NCBI GenBank assembly: GCA_002869265.1
Contig: PKTH01000011.1
Location: forward strand, 10,843 to 74,842
Length of the DNA: 64,000 nucleotides
From: Candidatus Parcubacteria bacterium
GTDB taxonomy: Bacteria; Patescibacteriota; Patescibacteriia; Patescibacteriales; BM507
Direction of reading: 5' to 3'
Numbering within the stretch: position 1 is the first letter of the stretch; each line of letters starts with the position of its first letter. The notes under the pieces are model-generated. The model was not told the origin of the DNA. It ran no database searches and saw only the letters and a program-made list of their open reading frames with translations. Made by a program: the position numbers and the translations under genes. Positions 1 through 18,860 of this stretch are shown one piece after another.

Positions 1-39
1 TTAATAAGTTTTTAAAATAAAATATCTTATAAACACCCC

Positions 40-687
40 ATGCAAGATATTAAAAAAGATGGGTCTTTTGCGCAAAAGAAAGACTCTAATCTAAATACTG
101 ATCAAAATAAGCATCACGAAATAAAAACAGCTTTTAGTGATTTGAGTACAAGTCGAAGAATATTAGTCGTTTCTTTGGCTTTTTTTAGTATAATTTTATT
201 TTTTTTCTGGGGTGGTAGTACAAAAAAAAGATTAAGTTCTCCTTTAAACCCTGACGTTGACACAGAACCTCTTGTCAGCTTAAATCAATCGGAAAATAAT
301 CTACTAAATGCTGACGAAGATGGAGATGGCTTAACTGACCTAGAAGAAGAGAATTTGTATCAAACTTCTCCTTATCTTGATGATACAGATAGCGATGGTG
401 TTTCAGACGGAGATGAAGTTAAAAATGGAAGTGACCCAAACTGCGCTGAAGGACAAAACTGTTATCAGGAAACAATAGTAAACATTGACAATCAAGACAG
501 TGCAGATCTCGATAATATTGGCTTAAGTGGTGATATCTCAGATGAGGAATTGTCTCAAGCTCTAAGCGGGAAGAGTAGTGTTGAAACGTTGAGAGAAATG
601 CTTTTAGAGGCCGGTATGCAAAAAGAGGTTTTAGATTCGATTTCCGATGAAGATTTATTAAAAAGCTATCAAGAGGTTTTACAATAA
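40..687 (+). CDS. Membrane-anchored acidic protein with thrombospondin type-3-like (Asp-rich, Ca-binding) repeats
   Basis: 215-aa ORF. One hydrophobic segment (ILVVSLAFFSIILFFFWGG). Asp-rich loops DEDGDGLTDLEE and DDTDSDGVSDGDE resemble TSP3 repeats. Ends 15 nt upstream of the giant ORF on the same strand. Confidence 0.6.
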   Translation: MQDIKKDGSFAQKKDSNLNTDQNKHHEIKTAFSDLSTSRRILVVSLAFFSIILFFFWGGSTKKRLSSPLNPDVDTEPLVSLNQSENNLLNADEDGDGLTDLEEENLYQTSPYLDDTDSDGVSDGDEVKNGSDPNCAEGQNCYQETIVNIDNQDSADLDNIGLSGDISDEELSQALSGKSSVETLREMLLEAGMQKEVLDSISDEDLLKSYQEVLQ

Positions 688-702
688 TTTTTATATAAGT
701 AT

Positions 703-3700
703 ATGAAAAATTTATTTTTTCAAAAAAGAATATTTGCCGGGGCGTTGATTGTTCTTACTCTATTCGGATTATTAGCTTTTCAAAAACCAGCCTTTTCTCT
801 CGAGATTTTAGTTAGAGACAACGAGACAATCGTTGGCCAGTACGAACAATCTGCTTATGATAAAGCAGTCCAAGCCATGAAAGAAGCTGCTGACAAACTT
901 GTTGCTGGTCTTAAAACCGCTGGGTCAAAAGCCCTTTCTTCAAGTCTTCGTGCAGCGCTTAATACAATAGCATATGATACAGCCACATACCTTGGATCAG
1001 GCAACAGGGGTCAAAAACCCCTTTTTATTACAGAGGGTTGGGGGGAATATATGAACAATATAGCTGATAATGCAGCGGGATCATTTATTGAAGACTTGGG
1101 ACGTAATCCAGACTTTTTTGGTCAGTTTAATCTATGTGAACCAGACCTCGCTGTTAAATTTAACATAGGTTTGGGGCTAAGGCAGCAATATAGACCTTCA
1201 GAACCGGTTTGTACATTTAGCGAAATGAAAGAAAACTGGGATGAGGAATTATCTAGAGGAGATTTTTTAGAGAGGTTCAGCACCTCCTTTAGCCCAACAA
1301 GTAATGAAGCTATGATTGCTGTTTCACTTCATACGAACATTGTCCAAGATATTAAAGGTAGTACAGAAGCAGCAGAGAAAGACAGGGAAGAAACAGGTGG
1401 GTGGTTAGATGTTAGAAATATTGCTGGAGACAGAGTATCTCCTCCTAGCGAAGCGGAAAGGGAACTGGAAATGGCTATTGAGATGCAGAATGCTCAGCTT
1501 GGTGCCTGGACAGGAGATGCACTTGTTGATGCGTCAAATGTTTTCTTAAATCAGTTGGCCATAACTGCTTTTCAGACAGCAATGCGTAGTTTAGCTGATG
1601 GTGAAAATACTAATTTCACATCTCCATATGATTGGGCAAGTTTAACCGACTTCGAGGCTGGCCCTGCTAGCCAGGGCGTTTCTGGAACTCAGGGTAAATT
1701 AAGTGGAGTTATTCAGCCTAATTTTTCAATTAGGGGTGATTATAATATTCTTTCAGAATTAACAATGTGTCCTGATCCAACAAAAGCTGGACCGACTGAG
1801 TGTGTAATAACCGATAAATTTAATCAGGCAATTTTGAATAAATTAACCCTGGCAGAGGCAGTAAGACAAGGTTACTTAAGCGGAGATCTTGTCTTTGGTT
1901 TCAGAGATGGGGGGGTTGAGCCTAGGTACAACGAAGGGCTTCCGTATAGATCTATGATTATTCTAAGAAAATTTAGGATCATACCCGTAACTTGGGAAAT
2001 AATAGCTCAACATATAACAAAAAATTTCAATAGAGCATATAGTCTTCAAGAACTTATTAATTGTTATGATTCGAATGATGAGTTTGGTGAACCGGCAGAT
2101 ACCCTAAATTGGTGTGAAGGGATGATTGATCCTAGTTGGGTTTTAAAGGCTCCCCTAAACTATTGTGGTCGAGAAGGTCCAGGGCCAAATATAAGGTTTG
2201 AAACTATCACGGGGGAAGGCGATGATAGCAAGGTAAATATTTCAAGGGACGATAAATATTGTGGAGATGAACAAACCTGTATAGATGAAAACAGTGATGG
2301 CTCTTGTAATGTTTATGGATATTGTACGGAAGAAAAAAGAAAGTGGGTTTTTGGTTCTGAGGCTTGTGAGCCAAAATTTAACACTTGTCAAACTTTTAAG
2401 AAAAGTGATGGTTCAACAATTAGCTTCCTAGAAAATACAGTTGATTCATTTAGTTGTTCTCTCGACAATGCTGGCTGTTCAGAATATTTTACACAAGCAG
2501 ATTCAGTTGATCCTTATGACGAAAATACAAATAATGTTTTTTGGAGCACTGCAGTGGGTGATCCACATATAAATCTAGATAGAGACGCTGAAGAATGTTC
2601 AGAGAAAAACGAGGGCTGTACTCAATTAATTAGAACAAAGGAAGGGACAGGTGTAAATATATTACCAAACGCTAGTTTCGAAGATACTGATGTTTCTGGG
2701 AATCTGGTTTACTGGAGTGGGCTTGGGACATTGAGCACAGAGGCTTTTGATGGCTATTCTTCACTAGAACTTTCGCCAGGGTATTCTTCTATCTTAATTC
2801 CAGTTGGGCCTTTTGGGTATTTGGCTGCTGGAGAGGAATTTTCTCTTTCTTTTTACGCAAAAGATTGTACCGATGGGACAATCGTTGGTTTTGATGAGAG
2901 TATTATCCCTGGAGCAGAAATAGCTACAAGCTCAGTCAGTGAGGGTGCTCAGTGGAGAAGATTTGGAGTGTCTCGCTACTATAAACCAGACTATTTTACA
3001 AACGATGTAGAAATATTTTTTGATGTTCCAGCAGGCGGCACCTGTCTCATAGATGCTATAAAACTAGAAAGAGGAGGAGCTTCTACTCAGTATTCAGGTT
3101 ATATGGATGAAGGGATCATTTATGAAAAATTAATTCCAGAATACTTATATGAAGATTGCTATCAGGATGCTTTTGCCACTGTCCCAAACTACGAACTTGA
3201 AGCAAGTCGACCTGCTGAGTGTGATACCTATGCTCGTCTATGTATGCAAGAAGAGGTAGGCTGTAATATGTTTACTTCTCTTAGTGACAATATGCAAGTT
3301 CCTGCGAAAGTGACAGCGCAAGATTATTGTCCTGATGTTTGTGTTGGCTATGATTCATACATTCAAACGAAGACTTCTTTTGATTCAGAGCAAGAACAAT
3401 TATTTATTCCCAATACAGCCGAGTCTTGTAGTGCTAAAAACGCAGGTTGTGACGAATTTACAAACCTTGATAAAACAGAAGAGGGGGGAGAGGCTAGGGA
3501 GTATTATAAAAGTTTAAAACAGTGTATCAAGCCTGGTGATCCTGCAGCAGATTGTGGTGATTACTATACTTGGGAAGGGGCCGAGGCTACTGGTTTTCAA
3601 TTAAAAACCTTTAGCTTGCAAAGAGGAGTTGGGACCACAAGTCCAGCTACAGCTTCCGGTGTCTATAACCCCTTTACCTGCAATGCCCTTATTTATGCGG

Positions 3701-6700
3701 CCAGTTCGACAAGTCCCCTATATAATCCTGATTGTCGAGAATATTATGCAAAAACCGGAGATGTTTATTATCTCCTTAACTCAGAAACCATAACCTGCTC
3801 CGACAATTGTCATCCTTATAGAAGAACAGAAGATAATGTAGTGAAAAATAATGGTGTGAATGTTAACAGCGCTACTTGTTCTTCTTTACCCGGATATTCA
3901 GCAAGCCCCACTACTGTTGGTTGGGATGGGGATAATAACTATTGTGTAGAATGTATAAACGGAGGAGTCTGGAATCCTCAACATAATGCTTGTATTTATA
4001 TGGCAATTCCTAACGAGGGAGAGTCCTGTACGGCTTCTGATGCTGGATGTCGTGAATATGGAGGTAATTACGGAAATAATGTGAGAATTATTCTAAATAA
4101 TGATTTTGAAGGGTCAGTACAAGGCTGGGACTCTGAAGGGTCGACCAACGCAAGTGTTAGTAATGAGTCTTTAAGAATTGGAGAAAACTCTCTTTTTGTC
4201 CAGTCAGCGCCAAACACAATTTCTTACAATGTGGGATACAGGGTGGTAGAGGGGAGTGCTTATGTAATTCGTTTTCTTGCCAAATCAACCACCGATTTGG
4301 TTGACCTAGATATATATTTTGAGAATTCATTGGCTTCGACGACTCATTTTTCTGAAATTTTGCAAGTAAGTCCGGGTGAGTGGGGTATTTATGAAGTTAA
4401 TTTATTATCACTAAACCACAGGGTTGATTTTGCAGAAAAACTTGTTATAGCAGGAAGTGGTGCTGGGGCAACAGATTTTTATATCGATGATATCAAACTG
4501 ACAAATATAAGAGATAAATACTATATCATTAAAAATTCTTGGGCGATGCCAGAGATTAATGGTCGTGATATTTGTAATTGGGATATTTTGGCCGATAGTT
4601 TATATCCACAATATTCCTTGGGTTGTGAACAATACAGCGACAACGATAATAAGGTTTACAGCCTGAGAGATTTCACCAAACTTTGTCAGGAGTCTGCTGT
4701 TGGCTGTGAAATAATGATAGATACTCAGAATTCAGATTCTTATGAAGCTCAGCTCCTACCAGAAGGGGCCATTACCCCAAAGGTCAACGTTCCAGCAGAT
4801 GAATACGTCTATGCTGTTTACAGTGAAGACAAGCTTTGTGAGTCAGCGGATGAGGGTTGTCAGAGAATGGGAAAAGCCTATACATATGAGGGGCAAAAGT
4901 TAACTCAAGATTTCTATATTAAGAATAACCCAGACAAATACGATACAAGTGTTTGTTCAGAATTTGCAGTTGGTTGCGAGGAATGGACAACAAATAACGG
5001 ATCAGCTACATTTAAAGACCCCTATAATCAGGTTTGTGAGTGGAGACAGGAGAGTGGTGGAAGTGCTTGGGCTTGGTTAAAAAAGAAAATAAAGAGATGT
5101 GATATGGAGGCCTTGCCGACGGATCCGGGCTACGGGATAATTGACACGGTAAGTGCAGGAGAAACAACAATATGTTTTGACGACAGTGATTGTTCTGGTG
5201 GAAGGTGTATCGTAGATGAAACAGACTATGATTGTGCGGTTTCTCAATACAAAACGATAGGCTTTGGTGGTGCTGGCAATGCCGTAAAACAGCCAATGTC
5301 AGATGCAGACGGTAATTGGGTAGGAGTTTGTTCAGTTAGTAACTCTGGTTGCTCTGAATACATAGATCCTGTCTCTGATTTTCAATCGAACAAATTGTTT
5401 AATGCCAATTTCTACCAAGATATAGACTCAGATGGTTACGCAGATGGTTGGGATCCAGTGGGGCCAAGCGGTGGTTCGCAAGAGATACTCCTAGAATCCA
5501 ACACTTTGTATGTTATTTCAGTTGAAGGGGATAATACTCTTACCGTGACAGCCCCAATCGTAGCTCCAGCAGCTGTTCCTCCTTCAGCCTTTAGGATTCT
5601 AAATAATTCAAATGAATTTGAACCAAACACTTCTGTGGTCACAGTCACTTCCGCTGACGATGACATAAATAGCGTACGTTTTTATATTGACGGAAGTTAT
5701 ACAGTCAAAGTCGAAATAGCAGATGCTTCTTCTCATCTTTATGGAAATAATAGTGTGGTTTCTGTAAAAAAGGTCTCCATAGATTATCAAAAAGAAGATC
5801 TAGTAGACAGAGAGTCATGTAATGGAACAGTTGATTTCGAGAAGGGTTGCGTTTTATTTAATGAGAGGGTTGTCGATGGTCAAGGCTATGAAGATTTGAG
5901 CTGGGAAGCAGACGAAACAATCCATGATGGTTCGGGAATGTCTCCTTTACCTGGTGGGGCAGGTCTCCAAAATGCAAATGTTCTATTGAAAGTATCTCCG
6001 GATAGAACTTGTGGTTCATGGCTTGCTTGCAGCGACTACGTAACAGATGATGATAATAATGTGGTTTGTCAAGATATAGGTTTGTGTGATGGTCTGGATG
6101 ATAACGGTAATTGTAGTAATTTCCTAGTTGAGGAAGCCGTTCAAAATAGTTATACCCTGCCAGCAAGCATAGATTTCTCTAATATTTCTGGCTACGCCAA
6201 ATATGGCCTTCAAACTCCTCCAGAAGAGGGGATGGAAGGTATATATCCTTTTGGTAAGATGGAGCAAGCCACAGAACTTGCCTTTATGCCAAATGGAGAT
6301 TTTGAAATGAATGCTGACGGCACCATGCCCTTTGGTTGGAACTCTGGACCAGAACTGTGGAGTGAAAATATTTTCAAAGTAGTTGATAACCCAGTAGAAG
6401 CTGAAGGAGAGGGTGTGGATAGGGCTCCAAGTGGACAGAGCTTTTTGCAGGTTGGTGGAAGCACAGCCTATAAAGTTTATTCAGAGTATATTGATGTCAT
6501 AGGCGGTATGGAATATTCCTTAACAGCCTATATGAATACTATAAATCTACCAGATGGTGCAGCTGCTATTTGGTGGGATGAGATTGATTCAAACGGTGCG
6601 TTAACTTTTTTCGATAGACTTTTGGTTTCTTCAGAGTATGGTAATGACTGGGAGAAGTTGACTGGGACTGTGCAGGTAGAAGATGCAACAACTCAAATAA

Positions 6701-8232
6701 AATTGAAAATAGGTGTTACGACTGCTGGAAGTGGAAGTTTCTATGTTGATGATGTAAAAATAAGACCTACTCTAAACTCAAAGCCAGGCACATATGTAGA
6801 TCAAACCTGTAGGCTTTATCCTCAAGATGATTCACTCTCTTGTGAATATATAGAAGACTCAGGAGCCAAGCAAAAAGGTTGGTGGGGTTACTGTTTGGAG
6901 TATGATAGAGCTCCTGGTGACCCGGGCGCTTGTCTGCAGTGGTGGCCAGTGGCGAATATAAAGGGCGATGGCGTTAGCGAGGGCGGCTCAAATTATGAAG
7001 GAAGATATCCGCTATATTACTGTACACAAACTATGGTTGAACCGCTTTATGAATACAGGCATACTTATACATTATACAGGTCTGGTTGTCATACTAATTT
7101 TTTGTGGTGGTCTAGTGGGAATGCTTGTAATGGCCTCGAATGTCCTGATGGTTATATTGAATATAGCCACAAGGGTGACGATTGTAGCGATACTTTTGAT
7201 ATAGAGGAAAGAGTATATTGTTCTTGCCGACCAGATGGCGTGGGATTGGTTGCAGGACTAGAAGACGGTAGTCCTAATAGTTATAGTAACTATCAAGTTT
7301 ATCCATCAAGTGCTAATGATGGCTGGTATATAGCAACCGCAGATCAAACAAACTATAATACCCCAGCAGAAATTACTGCAGCAAATCCAAATTATGAACT
7401 TTTCTGTGGCACGGGTTCAGATCCTTGCTACCTTGAAGGAGAGGTTCGAAAATTAAGATATGGAGACTATATTGATTATTATGCTGGAGATGAAATAATC
7501 CCTGAACCAATGTGTATTAAATTTGCTAAAACCGTTACTGAAACTGGTAAAAATAAATATTGGAGTGGACGTGTTTTTGAAGGATCTGATTTTCAAATAC
7601 CTTGCTATGATGGCTTGATGTCAGCCCCTACTCCGATTTGTACTCAAGACAGCGACTATGCGCCTTTCGGTTCGGCAGTATATCCTGAACCTGTTGAGAA
7701 TCCAGCTCTATGGGATAGTGATGATTATATGACAGGAGTTCAGCCAATGCATTATCAAGACCCAAATACCAATTTAGCAGAACCATATCAAAACAGGATG
7801 GGTAAACTGTATACAGAGGACGACATTAGAAGACTTTTTGCTCAGTCATATGGTGTTTGGGATTGGTCAAGCCCAACAACATTTACTCCGACCAGTACCA
7901 CACCAGGGGAATACATTGTTTCTTATACAGGGCATTGGGAGGCTCCGAAAAATGAATGTACAGGACCTCTAGGACAAAGACCACCAACGCCAACTGACCC
8001 AACTGCTCCACCAATAGATCTGTGTGGGGTGATCCCTCGTGTAGACAGTGATCTTAATGATGCTAACGGAAATGATATTCGAGTTTCGGGAAATACTGGC
8101 GATATTTATGTATCACGAAATGGTTTTGTTGAATTAACCTTTAACACTCTTATGGATAGTGAACAATGGCCATTGGTTTTCTATGCTATAGACTGGGGGG
8201 ATGGTAAATCTACTGTGAAGTCAGGAACGTAA
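703..8232 (+). CDS. Giant exported Cys-rich surface protein (2,509 aa), adhesin-like, function unknown
   Basis: Uninterrupted 7.5-kb ORF with an N-terminal hydrophobic signal/anchor (IFAGALIVLTLFGLLAF). Nine copies of C-x5-G-C-x-x-[YFWIM] (e.g. CSLDNAGCSEYF, CSAKNAGCDEFT, CTASDAGCREYG). Three to four jelly-roll/CBM4_9-like modules open with N-x-x-FE...W. No catalytic motif recognised. Confidence 0.85.
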   Translation: MKNLFFQKRIFAGALIVLTLFGLLAFQKPAFSLEILVRDNETIVGQYEQSAYDKAVQAMKEAADKLVAGLKTAGSKALSSSLRAALNTIAYDTATYLGSGNRGQKPLFITEGWGEYMNNIADNAAGSFIEDLGRNPDFFGQFNLCEPDLAVKFNIGLGLRQQYRPSEPVCTFSEMKENWDEELSRGDFLERFSTSFSPTSNEAMIAVSLHTNIVQDIKGSTEAAEKDREETGGWLDVRNIAGDRVSPPSEAERELEMAIEMQNAQLGAWTGDALVDASNVFLNQLAITAFQTAMRSLADGENTNFTSPYDWASLTDFEAGPASQGVSGTQGKLSGVIQPNFSIRGDYNILSELTMCPDPTKAGPTECVITDKFNQAILNKLTLAEAVRQGYLSGDLVFGFRDGGVEPRYNEGLPYRSMIILRKFRIIPVTWEIIAQHITKNFNRAYSLQELINCYDSNDEFGEPADTLNWCEGMIDPSWVLKAPLNYCGREGPGPNIRFETITGEGDDSKVNISRDDKYCGDEQTCIDENSDGSCNVYGYCTEEKRKWVFGSEACEPKFNTCQTFKKSDGSTISFLENTVDSFSCSLDNAGCSEYFTQADSVDPYDENTNNVFWSTAVGDPHINLDRDAEECSEKNEGCTQLIRTKEGTGVNILPNASFEDTDVSGNLVYWSGLGTLSTEAFDGYSSLELSPGYSSILIPVGPFGYLAAGEEFSLSFYAKDCTDGTIVGFDESIIPGAEIATSSVSEGAQWRRFGVSRYYKPDYFTNDVEIFFDVPAGGTCLIDAIKLERGGASTQYSGYMDEGIIYEKLIPEYLYEDCYQDAFATVPNYELEASRPAECDTYARLCMQEEVGCNMFTSLSDNMQVPAKVTAQDYCPDVCVGYDSYIQTKTSFDSEQEQLFIPNTAESCSAKNAGCDEFTNLDKTEEGGEAREYYKSLKQCIKPGDPAADCGDYYTWEGAEATGFQLKTFSLQRGVGTTSPATASGVYNPFTCNALIYAASSTSPLYNPDCREYYAKTGDVYYLLNSETITCSDNCHPYRRTEDNVVKNNGVNVNSATCSSLPGYSASPTTVGWDGDNNYCVECINGGVWNPQHNACIYMAIPNEGESCTASDAGCREYGGNYGNNVRIILNNDFEGSVQGWDSEGSTNASVSNESLRIGENSLFVQSAPNTISYNVGYRVVEGSAYVIRFLAKSTTDLVDLDIYFENSLASTTHFSEILQVSPGEWGIYEVNLLSLNHRVDFAEKLVIAGSGAGATDFYIDDIKLTNIRDKYYIIKNSWAMPEINGRDICNWDILADSLYPQYSLGCEQYSDNDNKVYSLRDFTKLCQESAVGCEIMIDTQNSDSYEAQLLPEGAITPKVNVPADEYVYAVYSEDKLCESADEGCQRMGKAYTYEGQKLTQDFYIKNNPDKYDTSVCSEFAVGCEEWTTNNGSATFKDPYNQVCEWRQESGGSAWAWLKKKIKRCDMEALPTDPGYGIIDTVSAGETTICFDDSDCSGGRCIVDETDYDCAVSQYKTIGFGGAGNAVKQPMSDADGNWVGVCSVSNSGCSEYIDPVSDFQSNKLFNANFYQDIDSDGYADGWDPVGPSGGSQEILLESNTLYVISVEGDNTLTVTAPIVAPAAVPPSAFRILNNSNEFEPNTSVVTVTSADDDINSVRFYIDGSYTVKVEIADASSHLYGNNSVVSVKKVSIDYQKEDLVDRESCNGTVDFEKGCVLFNERVVDGQGYEDLSWEADETIHDGSGMSPLPGGAGLQNANVLLKVSPDRTCGSWLACSDYVTDDDNNVVCQDIGLCDGLDDNGNCSNFLVEEAVQNSYTLPASIDFSNISGYAKYGLQTPPEEGMEGIYPFGKMEQATELAFMPNGDFEMNADGTMPFGWNSGPELWSENIFKVVDNPVEAEGEGVDRAPSGQSFLQVGGSTAYKVYSEYIDVIGGMEYSLTAYMNTINLPDGAAAIWWDEIDSNGALTFFDRLLVSSEYGNDWEKLTGTVQVEDATTQIKLKIGVTTAGSGSFYVDDVKIRPTLNSKPGTYVDQTCRLYPQDDSLSCEYIEDSGAKQKGWWGYCLEYDRAPGDPGACLQWWPVANIKGDGVSEGGSNYEGRYPLYYCTQTMVEPLYEYRHTYTLYRSGCHTNFLWWSSGNACNGLECPDGYIEYSHKGDDCSDTFDIEERVYCSCRPDGVGLVAGLEDGSPNSYSNYQVYPSSANDGWYIATADQTNYNTPAEITAANPNYELFCGTGSDPCYLEGEVRKLRYGDYIDYYAGDEIIPEPMCIKFAKTVTETGKNKYWSGRVFEGSDFQIPCYDGLMSAPTPICTQDSDYAPFGSAVYPEPVENPALWDSDDYMTGVQPMHYQDPNTNLAEPYQNRMGKLYTEDDIRRLFAQSYGVWDWSSPTTFTPTSTTPGEYIVSYTGHWEAPKNECTGPLGQRPPTPTDPTAPPIDLCGVIPRVDSDLNDANGNDIRVSGNTGDIYVSRNGFVELTFNTLMDSEQWPLVFYAIDWGDGKSTVKSGT

Positions 8233-8502
8233 CTTCGTGATAGACATGATGTAGATAACCCATTTTCAGTCTTTCATTTATTTGATTATTATAATTTATT
8301 ACATGATAGTTATGACAATCCAAACATTGATTGTAACCTAGCTGGTATTCCAAACGCATGTGCAGTTAGGCCCGGTGTAAAGATTAAGGACAATTGGGGT
8401 TGGTGTAGTGATGCTCTTTTGGACACAAGCGATCCAACTAATATCTGTCCTGGTTTTGCTTATGAGATGTTTGATGGCAGGATAATTGTAAAAGAAAAGT
8501 AG
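8233..8502 (+). other. In-frame continuation of the giant ORF after its TAA stop (89 sense codons, then TAG)
   Basis: Same frame as 703..8232. Reads LRDRHDVDNPFSVFHLFDYYNLL...CNLAGIPNACAVRPGVKIKDNWGWCSD...ICPGFAYEMFDGRIIVKEK. Protein-like and Cys-containing, with no usable start codon near its 5' end. Confidence 0.6.
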
Positions 8503-8541
8503 TGATAGTAATAAATAATATTTGTAATTTAAATAAGCAGA

Positions 8542-9126
8542 ATGGCTAACGAACCTGGAAATCAAAATAGATCAGTTGATACAGACGTTTTGAGAAACGA
8601 GAGGATGGCTAATGAAATGAGAGAAAGTAAACAGCAGAAAAAAATAGAAAATCAGCAAGCCCTGAAAGAGGAGCAAGTAGAACAAGGGGAAGTCCAAGCG
8701 GAACCAGTAAATAAAGAGACCGGGCTAGCAACTAAAGGGAAAAAGAAAAAAAGTGTAAGTAAGAGAAAGTTATTGTTAGCAAGGAAACTTGAAAAAAAAA
8801 TTAAAAAAGAAAGATTTGATGGTTTACCTTTTTTTTCAGCAATAATTCTTGCACAAATAAAGGATATTATTGATATTTTGAGCTTGGGCACAGTTGGCAC
8901 GGTTCTTGGTTTCGTTATTGGACCAATGTTAGGGATAATAATGTGGTCGGTTGGAGAATCTAGTATTACGCTCAAGTTAAAAAGAGTGATAATCGTCAAC
9001 GTACTTGAGGATATACCTTTTTTGAATATATTGCCTATATGGACACTGGTGATTATATATATGAAGGTACAACATGACAACAAAGTGAGGCTTTATCAGC
9101 ATCAATTAAAGAGGTTGAGCAAATAG
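8542..9126 (+). CDS. Small membrane protein with Lys/Glu-rich N-terminus (T4SS-like cluster)
   Basis: 194-aa ORF. Charged N-terminal half and hydrophobic C-terminal half with 2-3 predicted TM segments. Ends 5 nt before the VirB6-like gene. Confidence 0.6.
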   Translation: MANEPGNQNRSVDTDVLRNERMANEMRESKQQKKIENQQALKEEQVEQGEVQAEPVNKETGLATKGKKKKSVSKRKLLLARKLEKKIKKERFDGLPFFSAIILAQIKDIIDILSLGTVGTVLGFVIGPMLGIIMWSVGESSITLKLKRVIIVNVLEDIPFLNILPIWTLVIIYMKVQHDNKVRLYQHQLKRLSK

Positions 9127-9131
9127 AATTT

Positions 9132-11621: not shown

Positions 11622-11625
11622 AATT

Positions 11626-12813
11626 ATGATAAAAAACTTTGACGAAAAATTAAATAAACTACCAAAAGATGTACGAGAGTATCTTCTCTTTGAGACGGGC
11701 TCTAGACTAGAAAGGTATTTAATTCAGAACTACCAGATATCTTCTAAAGAGTATACAATTGGTGATCTTCTTTGTATGGTCTACTTTGGTGATCTTTCAC
11801 TTGAAAAAGTCCTAGATTTCTTTAGGGAAAATTTTGAGCCGTCCGACGAAAGAGCAAAGAAGTTTATTTTAGATTTAATTGGAATCAGGATTTTACCCAT
11901 TAAAGATTACCTGAAAAACGAAGACTTTGAGTATGTTATTTATAATTTAGGCGGCAATATAGATGATTATAATAAGTTTATTGAATTCAGCAGAATGGCT
12001 GCCGAAAAAGAATCAAGAGGGGAAATGGTGGAAATCGATGATATTTTAGGAATAAAAAAGGGCGAAGAGCAATTCGAAGAGACCCTTAATAGGCTTAGCC
12101 CAGATTTGGATGAGAAAAGCGAGAAAAGGGATAGCTTAAAAGTGTTTGAAACATCAATTAAGCAGATGTTGGTTAGTGCGGATAAAGATATATTGGAGGA
12201 TTATAATTTAGCCTTGATGGAGCTGATAACAGATGATGTTAAATTTAAAAGAGATCTTGAAAATAGTCTTTATCATAATAACGAACTATTAACAACTTCT
12301 AAATTTAAGTTGGGAGAAAAAGAGGAAAAACCCACAATTGGAAATTGGCTAAAAGATTTTATAAAAAGAGTAGGAACTAAGAACTTTTCAAATGTTACTT
12401 TAATGGATTACCTGACCAAAAATGCAAACACCAAAAATCTTTATACTAATGAAAGAGTTCTCTTAAGTAAGCTTTTGCAACTTTATAGGAACCTTAAATT
12501 TTTCCCAGAAAGCCAAAAGGGTCTTCGAGAAGAAAACTGGGAAATAATTCCAGCCGAAGAAATAAAAGAGACAAAGATTGGGCACAGGTCTATTGGGGTG
12601 CCAAAAACAGAGGCTGAAAAGAATATTGAAAAATTAGAAGAAGAGTCGAAAGATTTTGAAGAGAATAGTCTTGAAAAACTTGCCATAGAAGAGGCAATTG
12701 ATAAAGAAAAGAAAATTGAAGAATTGCGATTTATGGCGACTAAGTTTGCCGAAGATAGTTTGGAAAAGAAAGCGATTGAAGAAGAAATAAAAAAAATGGA
12801 ACACGAAAAATAA
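11626..12813 (+). CDS. Hypothetical K/E-rich protein (T4SS-like cluster), paralogous N-domain with the next gene
   Basis: ATG at 11626 lies just after the stop of the previous gene; the ORF-track start at 11515 overlaps that gene. N-terminus is MIKNFDEKLNKLPKDVREYL. C-terminus repeats SLEK(L/K)AIEE. Confidence 0.7.
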   Translation: MIKNFDEKLNKLPKDVREYLLFETGSRLERYLIQNYQISSKEYTIGDLLCMVYFGDLSLEKVLDFFRENFEPSDERAKKFILDLIGIRILPIKDYLKNEDFEYVIYNLGGNIDDYNKFIEFSRMAAEKESRGEMVEIDDILGIKKGEEQFEETLNRLSPDLDEKSEKRDSLKVFETSIKQMLVSADKDILEDYNLALMELITDDVKFKRDLENSLYHNNELLTTSKFKLGEKEEKPTIGNWLKDFIKRVGTKNFSNVTLMDYLTKNANTKNLYTNERVLLSKLLQLYRNLKFFPESQKGLREENWEIIPAEEIKETKIGHRSIGVPKTEAEKNIEKLEEESKDFEENSLEKLAIEEAIDKEKKIEELRFMATKFAEDSLEKKAIEEEIKKMEHEK

Positions 12814-14352
12814 ATGCTTGATTATTTAACAAAATTTAATGCTTTGCCAAAGTACTTGAAGGATAAAATGTCAGATCCTTCTATTTTGAGTGCAGTGAAG
12901 GCTATAGAGGAAAAGTATGATCTAAGTCTAGCAGCAACAATAATGAAAGTGATGGTAAAAGATATTTCTATTTTGGATTTATCTAAGTATTTTGTTTTCG
13001 AACATGATCTTTCAGGAGACAAGGCAGAAGAATTGGTTACTGAGTTAAAAAACAAGGTTTTGTATGTTGCCGCTGAACACCTGGGCTTAAAAGATGTTAA
13101 ACAAAAAGATTTGATTGGAATAGAGGATCAAGAAAAAGACAATGATGAAAACAGGGTAAAAAGCTCAAACTTTTTTTTCTCATCTGAGGATGAGGAGGAG
13201 GTTTCTAGCTTAACTCAGAAACTAGGCACTGTTGGGAAAGAGAAAAAAATAGATGAAAAAAAGATAGATAGTGTTATTAATGACGTTATTTTTGACACAG
13301 GAGTTAGTTTTAGCTCTTCAGATCTCTCTGAGCGTTTTATAAAGGTTTTGAAAACCTACACAAAAGGGGTAAGAAAAAGAATTGATACCAAATTAACTCT
13401 GGCAAAAGATGTAGACAAAGGTGGTCTCGGTATGAGTGGTGGACGAGTAGAGGAGGTTTTGAAACTGTTAGATAAAAAAAATAAAGAAAGCGGTTCGGAT
13501 ATCTTTGAAATAAAGCTTAAAGAAGATTCTCTGGATACAAAGCCAAAAATTGATCAATTAATAGAGAAGACCGAAAAGAACAACCATGACAAAGAAAAAA
13601 AATCTGGCCTAGAGAATTTTAGAAAAAAAGTTGATGCAGGGGCGCTAAACGAATCAAGAGATGTGGCTTATGACCTGTCGTCTATGCCTAAAAAGACTGA
13701 CACAAAAGATAAACAGTCATCAGCAAAAGAAAAGAACGTTACTGAAATCCCCAAAAAAGAGGCAAGTAGTAGTCCTAAGTTAGATGAAAAAGGTTTCCCA
13801 GTCGTAGGGACCCCAGTTATCAATAGCCTGCCAAATGTTAAAGAAAATATTCCCGAAAAAAAAGATTCTCCAGAAATAAAAAAACCACTCAAAGCACCGA
13901 TCAAGTCCGTTCAAAAAGAAAAAAATCTTGATGATCATATAGCGGGGAAAGATGGTAAATTCAAGCCAAGAATTGTGGCCCCCGAAACAGGGAAGAAAAG
14001 AGTAGAGGATGTGAAAGCGGTTCCGAGATTAATGGGCCCTATTGATGAGCTTTTAAATATGACAATTATTGATTTTCGAAGACTTGATTCTGACCCGATG
14101 AGAGCGGCAGCAAAAATAAAAGAAAAAATTGACCTACTTGGAGAAGACGGGATTAAGAAAAAATTGGAAGGTAAGGCCGCTTGGAGAAAAAGTAAAGTTT
14201 TTAAAGAGTATATAGATATTGGAAGGAAGGCAATTGGTCAGAAAAAACCAATTTACGAAGTTATTAATGATAAAACATTTAGCAATCAAGAGACATTGAA
14301 AGAAGCCGAATTTGAGGCCGTCTTAAATCTAAATAGAGAAATTAGATTTTAA
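12814..14352 (+). CDS. Hypothetical K/E-rich protein (T4SS-like cluster)
   Basis: 512-aa ORF. Its ATG directly follows the preceding TAA. N-terminus MLDYLTKFNALPKYLKD parallels that of the preceding gene. Long low-complexity Lys-rich middle region. Confidence 0.7.
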   Translation: MLDYLTKFNALPKYLKDKMSDPSILSAVKAIEEKYDLSLAATIMKVMVKDISILDLSKYFVFEHDLSGDKAEELVTELKNKVLYVAAEHLGLKDVKQKDLIGIEDQEKDNDENRVKSSNFFFSSEDEEEVSSLTQKLGTVGKEKKIDEKKIDSVINDVIFDTGVSFSSSDLSERFIKVLKTYTKGVRKRIDTKLTLAKDVDKGGLGMSGGRVEEVLKLLDKKNKESGSDIFEIKLKEDSLDTKPKIDQLIEKTEKNNHDKEKKSGLENFRKKVDAGALNESRDVAYDLSSMPKKTDTKDKQSSAKEKNVTEIPKKEASSSPKLDEKGFPVVGTPVINSLPNVKENIPEKKDSPEIKKPLKAPIKSVQKEKNLDDHIAGKDGKFKPRIVAPETGKKRVEDVKAVPRLMGPIDELLNMTIIDFRRLDSDPMRAAAKIKEKIDLLGEDGIKKKLEGKAAWRKSKVFKEYIDIGRKAIGQKKPIYEVINDKTFSNQETLKEAEFEAVLNLNREIRF

Positions 14353-14354
14353 AT

Positions 14355-14831
14355 ATGCAACAGTTTACAGTACCACAATTTATTGATGTAGAGGATAAAA
14401 TAATCGGACCAGTAACTACAAGACAATTTGTTATTATCTTGTCTGGCTCCTTGATTCTTTTTATTATTTTTAAATTTTTCAATCTACTTTACCTTTTAAC
14501 TGTTGGTAGCTTTGTGTTTATCAATATGGTGCTCTTTGCTTTTTTTAAAGTAGCAGGTAGACCGTTTCATTTTTTTGTTTTAAATTTTATTCAAACGCTT
14601 TTAAAAGCGGGGACTAGGGTTTGGCAAAATCTACCAGCAAGTGAAGAGAAGGAAGAAATAATGGTCCACAAGGTCGAGACGAAAAGAATAAAACAAAGAG
14701 AATATACTTCTTCTAGGCTAGCTGAGCTATCTTTGATTGTCGACACTCAGGGGAAATTTAAACATGAAAATGGAAGTGCTGATATAGAGAGCGGCCTAGG
14801 GATAAAAAATAAAATTAACGAGATTTTATAA
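14355..14831 (+). CDS. PrgI-family / VirB3-like small membrane protein
   Basis: N-terminus FTVPQFIDVEDKIIGPVTTRQFVIIL is followed by two TM segments. This is the signature of Gram-positive PrgI-family proteins. It sits upstream of VirB4. Confidence 0.65.
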   Translation: MQQFTVPQFIDVEDKIIGPVTTRQFVIILSGSLILFIIFKFFNLLYLLTVGSFVFINMVLFAFFKVAGRPFHFFVLNFIQTLLKAGTRVWQNLPASEEKEEIMVHKVETKRIKQREYTSSRLAELSLIVDTQGKFKHENGSADIESGLGIKNKINEIL

Positions 14832-14832
14832 T

Positions 14833-15522
14833 ATGACCAATAAAGGAAAATTAGCAAGGAATAAAGTACAAGCCTCAACACAGAAATATGTTGATATTGG
14901 TGAAATAAAAGAGGACACTGTAGTGATGCGTGATGGAACCATGAGGGCGGTTTTACTTGTCTCAAGTATTAATTTTGCTCTAAAGAGTGAAGAGGAGCAG
15001 AACGCAACTATCTCTTCTTATGTGAGCTTTTTGAATAATATAAGTTTCCCATTACAGATTATAATCCAGTCAAGAGAATTAAACATTGAAGAATATATTA
15101 TAAGGTTGAGGGAGAAGGAAAATGAACAAACCAACGAGCTTTTGAAAATGCAGACAGCTGACTATATTGCCTATATCCAAGAATTAGTTGATATGAGTAG
15201 AATTATGAACAAGAGGTTTTATGTGGTGGTTCCATATAACCCCTTATCAGACAAACAGAAAGGATTTTTTGCCAGGCTTTTCGATCTTTTTAGACCAGAC
15301 TCAGCCGTTAAAATGAGAGACAAAGCATTTAATAATAGACGCAAAGAACTAAACAGAAGAGTTGATAATGTTTTGGGTGGCCTAACCTCTATGGGTCTTA
15401 GCGCAGTTCAGCTAGACACTCAAAGTTTGATTGAATTGTATTATAATACATATAACCCTATTACATCGGCCAACGAAAAATTGGTTAAAACAGAAAAATT
15501 AAGGGTAAATAAACAAAACTAA
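14833..15522 (+). CDS. Hypothetical protein between PrgI-like and VirB4 genes
   Basis: 229-aa soluble ORF, 1 nt after the PrgI-like stop and 2 nt before the VirB4 start. No motif recognised. Confidence 0.6.
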   Translation: MTNKGKLARNKVQASTQKYVDIGEIKEDTVVMRDGTMRAVLLVSSINFALKSEEEQNATISSYVSFLNNISFPLQIIIQSRELNIEEYIIRLREKENEQTNELLKMQTADYIAYIQELVDMSRIMNKRFYVVVPYNPLSDKQKGFFARLFDLFRPDSAVKMRDKAFNNRRKELNRRVDNVLGGLTSMGLSAVQLDTQSLIELYYNTYNPITSANEKLVKTEKLRVNKQN

Positions 15523-15524
15523 TT

Positions 15525-17420
15525 ATGGTTAATTTTAAAAAATTAAACAATTTAGATAGTAGCAAAGAAGAAGATAAATACTCCCAGGGACAGCAAAAGA
15601 CAAATATTGATGTAACTAAAGATCTTATCGAAGAAGAGAAGGAATATAGAAGAGGTTCCTTGTCTATTAGGGACTTGATTGCTCCTGCAAGCTTTCAGGT
15701 TAACCCAAGTTATTTAATGCTCGGGGACAAGTTTGTCAGAACAATATTTGTAATCACGTATCCTCGTTATATTAGTGTTGGGTGGTTCGCTCCGGTTATC
15801 AATCTTAACTCTACTTTTGATGTTTCAATGTTTTTCTATCCGGTTAACAATACCATGGTTTTGAAACAGCTGAAAAACAAGGTTGGTGCCCTTGAAGCTC
15901 AAATCATTTCTGATGCTGAGAAAGGAGCAGCTCGTGACCCATTAAGAGAAACAGCCTTGAGAGATATTGAAGCACTAAGAGATGCCCTAACCCAGGGAAT
16001 AGAAAAGTTTTTCCAATTTGCACTATATGTAACTCTTTACGCTGACTCAAAGAAAGAGCTTGATAGAATGTCGGATGAGGTTGAAGATATATTTGGTTCA
16101 CGCTTAGTTTATTCTAGAAGAGTTTTTTATCAAGCTGAGCAAGGATTCAATTCGACTATGCCTCTGGGTAATGACGAATTATATATTGCTTTCAATATGA
16201 ATTCATCACCGATTGCTTCTTCTTTTCCTTTTATTTCTAGTGAGCTTACAAGTGATAATGGTATTTTGTATGGAATTAACAGACATAATAATAGTTTGAT
16301 ACTCTTTGATAGATTTAGTTTGCAAAATGCTAATACGGTTGTATTTGCTACTTCCGGTGCTGGTAAAAGTTATGCTATTAAATTAGAGGTGTTAAGGAGT
16401 TTGATGCTAGGAACGGATGTTATGATTATCGACCCGGAGTTTGAGTATAAATATCTATCGGATGCAGTTGGAGGGACTTATATTAATGTTTCTTTATCAT
16501 CTGAGAACAAGATTAACCCCTTTGACTTGCCAAGATCAATTGGAGGAGACTCTAAAGCAGGGGATATAATTAGAAGTGCTGTTATAACTGTAAAGGGGCT
16601 TATTAGACTTATGCTTGGTGATCTAACCCATGAAGAAGATTCGATAATTGACAGAGCACTCTTGGAAACTTATGCTAAAAAAGACATAACCCCAGAAAGT
16701 GATCTCAATAATATAGAGCCCCCAGTTATGCAGGACTTTCAAGACGTTTTGGAAGGAATGGAGGGTGGAAACAGTCTTGCGCTTCGTTTGAAAAAATATA
16801 CCGAAGGAACTTTCTCAGGACTTTTTAATAGCCCCACCAACGTTGAGATGGACAACAACTTGGTTTGTTTCAGTGTTCGTGATTTAGAAGATGAGCTGAG
16901 ACCTATTTCAATTTATACTGTCGTAAATTATATTTGGAATGTGGTTAGGTCAGAGATGAAGAAGAGAATATTGGTAATAGATGAGGCTTGGTGGTTGATG
17001 CAACACGAGGATTCAGCAAAGTTTATATTCGCCCTGGTTAAGAGATGCAGAAAATACTATCTGGGTGTAACCACGATCACACAAGATGTAAATGACTTTT
17101 TAACTTCTCCTTATGGACAAGCTATTGTTACCAACTCATCTTTGCAACTACTTCTGAAGCAATCTACAGCCGGGGTCGATCTTATTCAGAAAACCTTTGC
17201 CCTAACGGAAGGAGAAAAATATTTACTTTTAGAGTCTGGTCTTGGTGAAGGGATTTTCTTTGCGGGTTCAAAGCATGCGGCAATAAAAATAGTCGCTTCA
17301 TATACAGAAGACCAACTAATCACATCTTACCCAAGACAATTAATGCAGATAGAAGACTCTAAAAAAGAATTTGACGAGAGTTTGGCCGATGAATATGATA
17401 CTAATCGGAGTGAAGAATAA
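15525..17420 (+). CDS. virB4: VirB4/TrbE/PrgJ-family type IV secretion ATPase
   Basis: 631 aa. Walker A VVFATSGAGKSYAIK, Walker B RILVIDEAWWLM, then VTTITQD. The N-terminal domain pattern (YPRYISVGWFAPVIN) is typical of VirB4. Confidence 0.85.
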   Translation: MVNFKKLNNLDSSKEEDKYSQGQQKTNIDVTKDLIEEEKEYRRGSLSIRDLIAPASFQVNPSYLMLGDKFVRTIFVITYPRYISVGWFAPVINLNSTFDVSMFFYPVNNTMVLKQLKNKVGALEAQIISDAEKGAARDPLRETALRDIEALRDALTQGIEKFFQFALYVTLYADSKKELDRMSDEVEDIFGSRLVYSRRVFYQAEQGFNSTMPLGNDELYIAFNMNSSPIASSFPFISSELTSDNGILYGINRHNNSLILFDRFSLQNANTVVFATSGAGKSYAIKLEVLRSLMLGTDVMIIDPEFEYKYLSDAVGGTYINVSLSSENKINPFDLPRSIGGDSKAGDIIRSAVITVKGLIRLMLGDLTHEEDSIIDRALLETYAKKDITPESDLNNIEPPVMQDFQDVLEGMEGGNSLALRLKKYTEGTFSGLFNSPTNVEMDNNLVCFSVRDLEDELRPISIYTVVNYIWNVVRSEMKKRILVIDEAWWLMQHEDSAKFIFALVKRCRKYYLGVTTITQDVNDFLTSPYGQAIVTNSSLQLLLKQSTAGVDLIQKTFALTEGEKYLLLESGLGEGIFFAGSKHAAIKIVASYTEDQLITSYPRQLMQIEDSKKEFDESLADEYDTNRSEE

Positions 17421-17431
17421 GTTTTAAATTT

Positions 17432-18109
17432 ATGAGTACAAAAATAATAGGAATTCTAATAATCATAATAGGGCTTGGAGGTCTTTTTGGCGCAGCCTAT
17501 TATGTTTATAGAGAAATGTACTATGTTCCAGATGAACCGGTTGTTCTTATTGATCAAACAGAGGAAGAAGAGATAGAGGTAGAGAAAGAAGAGACAATAA
17601 TTCCTAAAAACAATCTATTAAATATCCCTGTAAAGACAGAGGAGGGTAGTACTGAAAAAATATTAGAAAGACAAAAGGAGAGTGTTGTTATTAGTGCTAA
17701 AGACTCTAATCAAGAAGAGTCTACACCATTGGTGGAGAGTCAATTGAAGAGGACGGCAGCTCTTTTTATTGAGAGATTTGGTTCTTATTCAAATCAGTCT
17801 AATTTTTCAAATATTAGTGATTTGAAAATATACATGAGTGAGGGAATGAAGGTTTGGGCAGATGACTTTGTCCAAAAAAACAACGTTGACAGAGATGTCT
17901 CTACTTATTATGGTATAACAACAAAGGCTATTTCGCAGGATGTTGAATTTATAGATGAGAGTGCTGGAAACGTTTCTATTTTAGTGACATCCTTGCGTAG
18001 AGAAACAGGCGGAGACTTGAGCGAAGACAATTCTTTTTATCAAGAAGCTTTGGTCAGATTTGTTTTAGAAAAAGGGTTTTGGAAAGTAAGTAGTGCTAAT
18101 TGGCAATAA
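17432..18109 (+). CDS. Bitopic membrane protein, possible VirB8-like (NTF2-like C-domain)
   Basis: N-terminal TM (IIGILIIIIGLGGLFGAAYYV), acidic linker, and a C-terminal domain of about 130 aa ending FWKVSSANWQ. The VirB8-like assignment rests on size, topology and position only. Confidence 0.45.
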   Translation: MSTKIIGILIIIIGLGGLFGAAYYVYREMYYVPDEPVVLIDQTEEEEIEVEKEETIIPKNNLLNIPVKTEEGSTEKILERQKESVVISAKDSNQEESTPLVESQLKRTAALFIERFGSYSNQSNFSNISDLKIYMSEGMKVWADDFVQKNNVDRDVSTYYGITTKAISQDVEFIDESAGNVSILVTSLRRETGGDLSEDNSFYQEALVRFVLEKGFWKVSSANWQ

Positions 18110-18110
18110 T

Positions 18111-18860
18111 ATGAAAAAAGACAGTATAAAAATTTCAACTTTTGTTTTCGTTACGTTCTCACTATCAGCTTTTGTGGTGGTAAGTTTTTTATTTATTTTT
18201 CTTAGTTCTAAGATTAAATACGCAGTTGTAAATAGCGATTCTTATTCTGAGGAAACACGAAATATAAGATATGAAGAAAATGCAGGGCACGATGATCCTT
18301 TTTTAACTAAGGCAAGCACGTATAGAAGGACCATAGCAGGGCCAATAATTTCAAATTTTGATCCCTATATTGGTAATCTAGAATCACCAATCAAGATAAT
18401 TGTTTATTCAGATTTTACTTGTCCTTATTGTTATGAGCAGGAGAGGGTTATAAAAAAAGTTATTGATAAGTATGGTGAGTCTGTTCGATTTATTTGGAAA
18501 GATTATCCGGAGCTAGATATTGAATCAATGTCTTTTCGAGGGGCTGTTGCAGCCCGTTGTGCTCAAGAACAAGACGCTTTCTGGCTTTTTCATGACAGAC
18601 TCTTTGCCAAGAAAGGTGTATTTGATGAAGAAGATTTTATTGAAATTGGAAAAAATATAGGTTTAAATATTGGGAAGTTTAATGTTTGCATTGAAAATTA
18701 CGACACCCAAAAACTAATATTAGACAACGTGGAGGAAGCCAATGCCCTCGGGATAATAGGGGTTCCTAATGTTTATGTTAATGACAGGGAATTTATTGGT
18801 AATGTTAGCGAAAAAGATTTTTCTTTAATTATAGATAATGAGCTCAAGGCAAATGAGTAA
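18111..18860 (+). CDS. DsbA-family thiol:disulfide oxidoreductase, membrane-anchored
   Basis: CxxC active site (FTCPYC) in a thioredoxin-like context, with an N-terminal TM. ATG 18111 is preferred over the GTG at 18093, which overlaps the previous gene. Confidence 0.8.
   Translation: MKKDSIKISTFVFVTFSLSAFVVVSFLFIFLSSKIKYAVVNSDSYSEETRNIRYEENAGHDDPFLTKASTYRRTIAGPIISNFDPYIGNLESPIKIIVYSDFTCPYCYEQERVIKKVIDKYGESVRFIWKDYPELDIESMSFRGAVAARCAQEQDAFWLFHDRLFAKKGVFDEEDFIEIGKNIGLNIGKFNVCIENYDTQKLILDNVEEANALGIIGVPNVYVNDREFIGNVSEKDFSLIIDNELKANE

Follow-up and report, generated by a model that had tools for sequence, protein, structure and literature searches.

A giant cysteine-rich protein encoded with a relaxase-less type IV secretion core in a Falkowbacteria-like patescibacterium

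What kind of machine is encoded by a locus that joins the core of a type IV secretion system (T4SS) to a giant cysteine-rich protein, and does the giant protein belong to that machine? This question is raised by a block of 11 open reading frames (ORFs) at positions 40-18860 of a 64,000-nucleotide stretch of DNA from a Candidatus Parcubacteria bacterium (assembly GCA_002869265.1, contig PKTH01000011.1, positions 10,843 to 74,842 of the forward strand), which in its entirety is referred to here as the window. We interpret the block as a chromosomal, relaxase-less patescibacterial T4SS of the ABY1/Falkowbacteria form, with the giant protein as a host-contact part – a reading to which we assign a probability of about 0.72. 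The core system is already known; the module that combines the giant with VirB6 is a lineage-specific variation.

An earlier reading of the sequence (the original prediction) had described the block as co-directional and tightly packed. A check of the window ORFs bears this out: all 11 lie on the + strand at the coordinates listed here, with spacings of -23 to +15 bp between genes and one exception of 310 bp 3' of the giant ORF.

40-687, + strand: TSP3 protein (PF18884, 34.6 bits)
703-8502, + strand: giant exported Cys-rich protein, with the window ORF ending at 8232 (ORF and sister assemblies)
8542-9126, + strand: small Lys-rich membrane protein (hydrophobicity profile)
9132-11621, + strand: extended VirB6/TrbL-like polytopic protein (topology and orthologue matches)
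11626-12813, + strand: KE1, K/E-rich soluble protein 1 (composition and position)
12814-14352, + strand: KE2, K/E-rich soluble protein 2 (composition and position)
14355-14831, + strand: PrgI/VirB3-like protein (PF12666)
14833-15522, + strand: TrsD / TraC-like protein (NF041427, NF045975)
15525-17420, + strand: VirB4 ATPase (NF045971, P-loop_TraG)
17432-18109, + strand: VirB8-like bitopic protein (AlphaFold2 model and Foldseek)
18093-18860, + strand: membrane-anchored DsbA-type thiol-disulfide oxidoreductase (Thioredoxin_4, DSBA)

The block was compared with three sets of relatives: a VirB4-anchored set of 80 loci retained out of 506 relatives; a giant-anchored metagenome set of 80 loci kept out of 346 relatives, with 31-58% identity to the giant; and eight protein records of giant homologues that were looked up together with their neighbouring genes. 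The window VirB4 is 75-86% identical to its counterparts in the retained 80 Falkowbacteria/Patescibacteria loci, which come from metagenome-assembled genomes and have the same gene order. Where the record titles of these 80 loci are taxon-specific they read Candidatus Falkowbacteria, Parcubacteria or 'Patescibacteria group', the others being generic or evidently misassigned. The NCBI taxon Falkowbacteria corresponds to the GTDB class ABY1, and on these comparisons the window is from a Falkowbacteria-like patescibacterium of that class. The other genes of the window (TyrRS, LigA, GatA, a type IV pilus set, ComF, glycosyltransferases and a second DsbA) fit a small candidate-phyla-radiation (CPR) chromosome. 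Across the VirB4-anchored loci, the order VirB6-KE1-KE2-PrgI-TrsD-VirB4-VirB8-like-(DsbA)-RadA is widespread. A promoter and terminator scan of positions 1-20000 returned signals at or below shuffle expectation and was uninformative on operon structure.

We began with the identity of the core. The VirB4 ATPase, which has the GAGKS and VIDEAW motifs recognised in the original prediction, scores 363.6 bits on NF045971 (CD1110, a Gram-positive family), above the equivalog cut-off of 325, and matches P-loop_TraG in Pfam (E 3.9e-27). This 631-aa protein spans positions 272-892 when aligned to NF045975, a model of 894 positions, and corresponds to the C-terminal three quarters of a canonical VirB4. 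The 229-aa product encoded just upstream had been left as an unknown, and here the prediction can be replaced: the protein matches NF041427 TrsD (E 2.1e-7, below the curated cut-off) and aligns to positions 94-233 of the same full-length VirB4 model (E 9e-11), and its orthologues, at 54-71% identity in relatives, match PF26593 TraC-like. On the strength of these matches, the 229-aa product is TrsD, the detached N-terminal domain of VirB4. Because TrsD and VirB4 are collinear on one full-length VirB4 model, VirB4 is split over two genes at this locus. The PrgI/VirB3-like assignment of the 158-aa product was also upheld, with 29.9 bits on PF12666 against a cut-off of 27 and two transmembrane (TM)-like segments at aa 26-44 and 48-66; its gene lies two upstream of virB4 and was found in 74 of the VirB4-anchored loci.

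The 225-aa bitopic protein had been put forward as possibly VirB8-like. It gave no sequence match when a profile of the orthologue alignment was compared with the PDB, and Pfam searches with members of the alignment returned noise only. An AlphaFold2 model built on 65 homologues has a TM helix joined by a disordered linker to a C-terminal domain (99-225) of three helices and four strands with pLDDT >90. The top Foldseek matches of this model in the PDB are CagV/VirB8, TraE (pKM101), TrwG (R388), TcpC, TraH (pIP501) and PrgL, with Rickettsia and Agrobacterium VirB8 likewise among the best; E-values range from 5e-5 to 1.6e-3 with target-normalised TM-scores of at most 0.65, and the list further includes other NTF2-like proteins. 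Because this fold is widespread, part of the assignment rests on gene context. Fold and position directly after virB4 together support a VirB8-like identity for the modelled protein.

A VirB6/TrbL-like protein with a tail of ~450 aa had likewise been proposed. The topology holds: the 829-aa protein has ~8 hydrophobic segments within aa 14-328, followed by a hydrophilic C-terminal tail of ~450 aa, and in its orthologues the membrane core is conserved and the tail variable. Extended VirB6 proteins of this kind are a known class (2025 review of the T4SS superfamily). The family assignment was obtained through relatives: 4 of 26 orthologues match PF04610 TrbL (best E 7.2e-5), and the orthologue in locus L084 matches PF19590 TrbL_3. 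The VirB6/TrbL identity of the window's protein thus depends on its orthologues. Of the four families that the original prediction had proposed to search with profile models, then, PrgI and VirB4 were found directly, VirB6 only via orthologues, and VirB8 by predicted fold but not by sequence. By homology, the core would be a monoderm cytoplasmic-membrane translocon of VirB4/TrsD, VirB3, VirB6 and VirB8 without DNA-processing partners, in agreement with the Gram-positive-type T4SS core that had been proposed.

How does this core relate to known systems? Most of the 3,035 patescibacterial genomes examined by Quinonero-Coronel et al. 2025 (PMC12102498) encode VirB4, and these proteins form a clade within MPF-FATA. 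In that survey TrsD (the commonest component), PrgI/VirB3 and VirB6 adjoin virB4, VirB8 is rare and mostly from ABY1, relaxases are almost absent, coupling proteins are rarely near, and comF, recG and radA are found at ABY1 T4SS loci; no adhesins were detected with patescibacterial T4SSs. VirB2-like pilins are encoded near virB4 in many, not all, Patescibacteria. A homologous cluster, also without relaxase and coupling protein, is essential for Southlakia epibionticum to grow as an epibiont (Wang et al. 2023, PMC10633639), and patescibacterial systems are a recognised branch of the T4SS superfamily (2025 review). The earlier suggestion that the block is an undescribed system is therefore set aside, since relaxase-less chromosomal T4SSs have been published (PMC10633639, PMC12102498).

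The window locus resembles the patescibacterial T4SS (S. epibionticum SEML1_0006-0019; the 2025 survey) in its monoderm MPF-FATA core of VirB4, TrsD, PrgI/VirB3 and a putative VirB6, in the lack of a relaxase and coupling protein at the locus and in its chromosomal position among housekeeping genes. It shares with published ABY1 loci the radA, recG and comF neighbourhood and the VirB8-like protein. Unlike the published systems, the window has no VirB2-like pilin array and no peptidoglycan hydrolase, and its locus includes as integral parts a giant Cys-rich protein with multiple predicted carbohydrate-binding modules (CBMs), a TSP3 protein and a pair of K/E-rich proteins.

We next considered whether the block could be a conjugative element or the remnant of a decayed integrative and conjugative element (ICE). 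Its VirB4 family is named for conjugative transposons, and the likeness to conjugative MPF-FATA systems (pCF10 Prg/Pcf, pGO1 Trs, C. difficile CTn2) extends to a CD1110-family VirB4, a TrsD of the pGO1 type, PrgI, a VirB8-like NTF2 protein resembling PrgL, TraM and TcpC, and the lack of an outer-membrane core. Those systems differ from the window locus, which has no relaxase, no type IV coupling protein (T4CP; PcfC/TcpA) and no oriT context, is not on a mobile element, and has a split VirB4 and a VirB6 with a 450-aa tail. Block products and window ORFs of at least 160 aa were checked by Pfam or by reading of the translations, and some smaller ORFs by Pfam. No relaxase, VirD4/TcpA coupling protein or integrase was found in the 64-kb window or in the 10 kb upstream of it (taken from sister assemblies), and no lytic transglycosylase or VirB2-type pilin among the block products and checked window ORFs; the original prediction had seen none of the coupling ATPase, relaxase, lytic transglycosylase and pilin either, and these checks agree with it. 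The only other large ATPases in the window are of the PilB/PilT type (T2SSE), RadA and RecG. Because it has neither relaxase nor coupling protein, the locus is not a conjugation machine.

Its surroundings were also informative on mobility. The original prediction had allowed that a relaxase, VirD4 and integrase/att sites just upstream would turn the block into an ordinary ICE. The 10 kb upstream in the sister assemblies encodes pyruvate:ferredoxin oxidoreductase subunits, DsbA, a phosphatase-family protein, LeuRS, a major facilitator superfamily transporter and KsgA, and the block is not bracketed by att-like repeats. At 2.5 kb downstream there are tRNA genes, with short repeats of the tRNA-Arg 3' end close by; this 15-nt sequence, present 3 times within 300 bp (22353-22651), is the sole att-like feature and has no counterpart beyond the block's other end. 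In many species the locus is found at the same chromosomal position among housekeeping genes, and its GC content is unremarkable. We regard a conjugative or decayed-ICE origin as highly improbable, in line with the original view that this is neither a conjugation module nor an ICE.

The tRNA-end copies belong to a separate small feature. On the minus strand at 22320-22651, 3' of tRNA-Arg(gcg) (22638-22710), lie two tandem 142-nt units that are 97% identical; each ends in the 15-nt copy of the tRNA 3' end, a hairpin and T-run come next, and there is no Rfam match. The repeats may be the scar of recurrent integration and excision events at the tRNA, or a small RNA. An Rfam search of the window recovered four tRNAs only.

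The pilin deserves separate treatment. PF18895 and PF04956 had no match among the scanned window ORFs, and tblastn with the pilins of relatives found nothing in the window or in the sister assemblies L085 and L086. In ~29 relatives (e.g., L081 1667-4145 and L089 991-3536), one or two VirB2-like pilins (PF18895) are encoded 5-9 kb upstream of the giant gene, on the opposite strand and beside DsbA. Cys-rich extensions at the C-terminus are present on some of them, and fusions to NlpC/P60 hydrolase domains also occur. As relatives have pilins and NlpC/P60 upstream, the 'stripped-down' core of the original prediction may describe the window, but not the system. That neither a pilin nor a wall hydrolase was found in the window or the 10 kb upstream should not be taken to mean that the system lacks them.

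What, then, is the giant protein? Its ORF in the window encodes 2,509 aa and is ended by a TAA at 8230-8232. Two independent sister assemblies of essentially the same strain, L085 (JGI 3300007102) and L086 (ENA ERZ794998), show 3-4 differences from the window over 10 kb; both have GAA at 8230 and read on to 8502, giving a protein of 2,599 aa and a gap of 40 bp instead of 310 bp to the next gene. The TAA is the sole non-synonymous difference (those at positions 831 and 8592, both in L085, are synonymous), and the 90 C-terminal residues that it removes are conserved in giant homologues. It is either a sequencing error or a recent nonsense allele. Looking up the 2,509-aa product by exact match returned no record, as expected given that the other assemblies carry the 2,599-aa version. 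The original prediction of a 2,509-aa exported Cys-rich protein is borne out by the ORF, its N-terminal signal-like segment and its 80 cysteines, with the correction that the sister assemblies encode a longer form.

The 80 cysteines (3.2%) are mostly invariant across 33 homologues, and the CX6C motif occurs 12 times in the giant versus 2.4 times in shuffles. In the hydrophobicity profile, the N-terminal signal-like segment is the only hydrophobic stretch. We identified a CBM at aa 1129-1233, where PF02018 CBM_4_9 scores 35.9 bits against a cut-off of 25.9; together, CBM_4_9 and CBM22 matches cover aa 1109-1241, and a profile of the giant family matches the xylanase CBM22 4xup (E 3.9e-6). Two or three further CBM-like copies, detected as weak internal matches, lie at about 648-800 and 1858-2025. 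The giant is therefore a predicted extracellular glycan binder with three or four CBM-like beta-sandwich modules.

It also belongs to a large family, with more than 900 clusters at 50% identity. A word-index search returned 388 matches, the top 120 of which are 2,078-3,150 aa long and 36-54% identical. The N-terminal 570-aa module has 1,273 representatives at 50% clustering and lies at or near the N-terminus in all matches listed, and the family architecture – N-terminal 570-aa module, CX6C knots and CBM-like modules – is fixed. Every named homologue is called hypothetical. A diversity-generating retroelement acting on the giant, an idea suggested by a bAvd-like gene at 50001, was considered and rejected, the window having neither a reverse transcriptase nor a template/variable repeat pair. 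Small genes for 23S_rRNA_IVP / bAvd-like four-helix bundles occur at 50001-50342 of the window and in L083 (23692-24048), L084 (5710-6081) and L085 (646-1026), one of which sits inside the T4SS locus.

We then asked whether the giant is tied to the secretion genes across relatives. The original prediction had called for a test of synteny between the giant gene and the VirB4 cluster, and the giant proved to be syntenic with T4SS genes. Among giant-anchored metagenome loci that extend at least 3.5 kb beyond the giant, 40/43 encode VirB6 downstream in the same orientation. On the upstream side, a TSP3-like gene shares the strand of the giant in 62/63 metagenome loci, and it is likewise found in L081-L091. 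All eight look-ups have a VirB6-like gene downstream, in the order TSP3, giant, small TM, VirB6-like and KE1-like (the small-TM slot differs in L083). From the other direction, the C-terminus of the giant precedes VirB6 in 14 of the 22 VirB4-anchored loci with enough upstream sequence, and 3 more have a Cys-rich partial ORF there.

The flanks of this five-gene unit vary. Upstream we observed leuS/ksgA in some loci versus pheS/pheT in others, and downstream KE2-VirB4 versus PfkB/AdoHcyase/MetK. In a sub-lineage (L014, L016, L022, L034-L036, L042, L046, L048, L084 and L091), KE1 and KE2 are separated by an inserted block of housekeeping genes that includes those for PfkB kinase, AdoHcyase and SAM synthetase and, in L084, riboflavin genes; the insertion yields a VirB6 module and a VirB4 module. 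The more distant L087 has the core from KE2 to the VirB8-like gene without VirB6 upstream. Since the five-gene unit stays intact despite these changes on either side, the locus consists of two modules, with the giant in the VirB6 module. Our search, which covered open-access text only, found no paper describing the giant family or its link to VirB6, and the conserved module TSP3-giant-small TM-VirB6-KE1 is apparently unreported.

A possible but doubtful alternative is that the giant and the TSP3 protein form an independent adhesin or S-layer-like component that neighbours the T4SS by chance, in a lineage with stable gene order. A parallel comes from Peribacteria, where very large, signal-bearing Cys-rich proteins, barely annotated and proposed to function in cell attachment, are encoded in the same genome as a disulfide-forming enzyme (Anantharaman et al. 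2016, PMC4736985); these giant extracellular CPR proteins occur without reference to a T4SS. The comparison is by description only and across lineages: the Peribacteria proteins are 7% Cys and clustered together with no T4SS, whereas the giant is 3.2% Cys and encoded beside VirB6.

Several observations weigh against our interpretation, and some of them favour this alternative. The linkage has exceptions in both directions: 5 of the 22 informative VirB4-anchored loci show no giant before VirB6, and 3/43 giants have no VirB6 downstream, the two exceptions that we examined (L117 and L135) being real. Housekeeping genes are equally conserved beside the locus and, in some cases, inside it; as this lineage generally keeps a stable gene order, with ksgA, radA and recG likewise retained as neighbours, adjacency of the giant and VirB6 is suggestive only. 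The essential glycan-binding adhesins of S. epibionticum are encoded away from its T4SS. The window's own VirB6-like protein matches no T4SS model in Pfam, NCBIfam or a profile search of the PDB, and the giant gene in the window carries a premature stop. An AlphaFold2 model of giant aa 41-760 from a 30-sequence alignment was poor (mean pLDDT 56, pTM 0.28); its Foldseek search against the PDB gave nothing below E 1, and nothing was concluded from it. Signal-peptide cleavage and disulfide formation are themselves inferences.

Against the chance-neighbour explanation, the five-gene unit holds while both of its flanks change, linkage stands at 93% at giant identities down to about 31%, and module genes are only 5-40 bp apart. 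On these grounds, the tie between the giant and VirB6 appears to be a genomic association stronger than plain synteny. One of the exceptions is unusual in itself: at 17763-21413 of L135, the genes that come after the giant homologue encode a BNR-repeat protein bearing a type IX secretion system C-terminal sorting domain and a nitroreductase-YcaO fusion. Such a combination is odd in the genome of a monoderm CPR bacterium, and the contig may be chimeric.

We next examined the smaller products of the two modules. The predicted TSP3-repeat protein, first in the accessory module, exceeds the PF18884 TSP3_bac cut-off of 25 and has one TM-like segment (aa 41-59); it is a bitopic membrane protein with calcium-binding repeats. 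The small membrane protein (194 aa) is as Lys-rich as had been described, with 12.4% K, a hydrophilic N-terminus and 2-3 hydrophobic segments, and has no family match in Pfam or NCBIfam. A small TM protein of 162-211 aa occupies this slot in 7/8 giant look-ups; L083 has ORF6N and a 126-aa ORF instead. Across L001-L079, the position between the giant and VirB6 genes is taken by one or the other of two dissimilar small membrane proteins (e.g., L001 2775-3443 versus L004 2928-3425), one window-like with the pattern 'EFIPF..LP.YT..IIYMK' and the other with 'YINxHxF...FCKLGEEWxP', neither with a convincing Pfam match. We also considered this protein as a VirB2-type pilin and found no support, as neither slot type matches T4SS_pilin and the pilins of relatives are absent by tblastn.

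The two K/E-rich proteins had been proposed to be paralogous. Their K/E richness is evident, but paralogy was rejected (BLASTP E 0.25, hhalign probability 0.4%). KE1 has no TM segment, contains 12.4% K and 14.9% E, found nothing in Pfam, NCBIfam or the PDB with an orthologue-alignment profile, and stays beside VirB6 where housekeeping genes part it from KE2. In nearly all relatives, KE2 immediately precedes PrgI or is separated from it by one small ORF; it is present in 67/80 VirB4-anchored loci and in the distant L087. It has no Pfam, NCBIfam or PDB match, Pfam searches with alignment members gave noise, and its named homologues are 'hypothetical' in 53/53 cases.

The last gene of the block encodes the DsbA that had been predicted (Thioredoxin_4 104.6 bits, DSBA 66.2 bits), with a TM-like segment at aa 17-35. 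DsbA follows the VirB8-like gene in 33 relatives, 2 of the 35 DsbA matches lying elsewhere in the locus, and alignments start at aa 7-18; the true start is probably the ATG at 18111. The giant is the obvious client, because the predicted extracytoplasmic parts of the other products are almost Cys-free. Two more membrane-anchored DsbA paralogues lie no more than ~45 kb from the block DsbA (window 51864-52631 and L085 1906-2628), which fits a heavy investment in extracytoplasmic disulfide formation.

These observations suggest how the parts may work together. Most plausibly, we infer, the giant is a host-glycan-binding contact arm of the T4SS. It would be exported by Sec via its N-terminal signal, stiffened outside the cell by ~40 disulfides formed by the co-encoded DsbA, and kept at the membrane near VirB6, perhaps by the small membrane protein or the TSP3 protein. 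Its three or four CBM-like modules would bind glycans of the host envelope, and this binding would dock the VirB4-powered VirB3/6/8 translocon, with PrgI/VirB3 as the membrane tether of VirB4, on the host – by analogy with the surface adhesins of Gram-positive conjugation. Unlike a PrgB-type adhesin, the giant is a 2,600-aa protein that is presumably Sec-exported and has no LPXTG anchor. The recent literature calls the role of the patescibacterial T4SS 'completely unknown'; candidate cargo for the window's machine would be proteins outward, or host nucleic acid or nutrients inward.

We think it quite unlikely, but of consequence if true, that the giant, the TSP3 protein and the small membrane protein form an extracellular, disulfide-braced stalk or conduit of the T4SS itself. 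Such a structure would carry the VirB6 channel through the epibiont wall to the host envelope, as a monoderm stand-in for the missing outer-membrane core and pilus, and would be the long-sought physical route of material exchange between ABY1-type CPR bacteria and their hosts.

The direction of transport brings in an explanation that leaves the giant a role in contact only. Under it, the block would be a T4SS that imports DNA or RNA from the host or the surroundings, to be processed by a co-transcribed RadA, with RecG and ComF encoded nearby. These three neighbours are as follows.

18838-20202, + strand: RadA (Pfam, conserved neighbour)
20203-22275, - strand: RecG (Pfam, orthologue alignments)
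25090-25866, - strand: ComF-type protein (DZR_2, Pribosyltran)

H. pylori ComB and archaeal Ced are minimal VirB4-based uptake machines that import DNA without a coupling protein or relaxase. The window machine resembles them in lacking both and in having recombination and competence genes adjoining its locus. The radA gene is co-directional, overlaps the end of dsbA and has the same position in 36 relatives; we treat it, like recG and comF, as genomic context of the machine. recG and comF are conserved neighbours, as noted for ABY1 in PMC12102498, and in L081, L082 and L089 a ComF-type gene directly follows the VirB8-like gene. (The listed RecG ORF of 778 aa, running to 22539, is over-extended into the repeat described above, because orthologues align only from aa 89.) An uptake role has been proposed for the saccharibacterial T4SS (PMC11665869).

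VirB4 itself gives a CedB match of 45.8 bits, weak and far below the cut-off of 700, which reflects generic VirB4 similarity; CedD scores 15.9 bits. The outer-membrane VirB7/9/10 parts of ComB are absent from the window locus. radA and recG are housekeeping genes whose adjacency may be mere synteny. The window moreover encodes a complete type IV pilus, which in Saccharibacteria is the proven route of competence: PilM, PilB-type and PilT-type ATPases, PilC, a response regulator, a major pilin, a prepilin peptidase and three minor-pilin-like genes are spread over 27247-47553, broken up by an O-antigen-ligase/TPR protein and a glycosyltransferase cluster. Loss of comEC in Saccharibacteria ended transformation but not viability, and the T4SS remained essential (2025 review). 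We therefore consider a dedicated import machine unlikely, and favour the T4SS with the giant as its host-contact part.

Few machines have been shown to be essential to patescibacterial epibiotic life, and the T4SS is among them. The giant family, the TSP3 protein, the small membrane protein and KE1/KE2 supply concrete candidates both for recognising the host and for the extracellular portion of this machine, and the tie between the giant and VirB6 makes a VirB6 interface, localisation at contact sites and dependence on DsbA testable.

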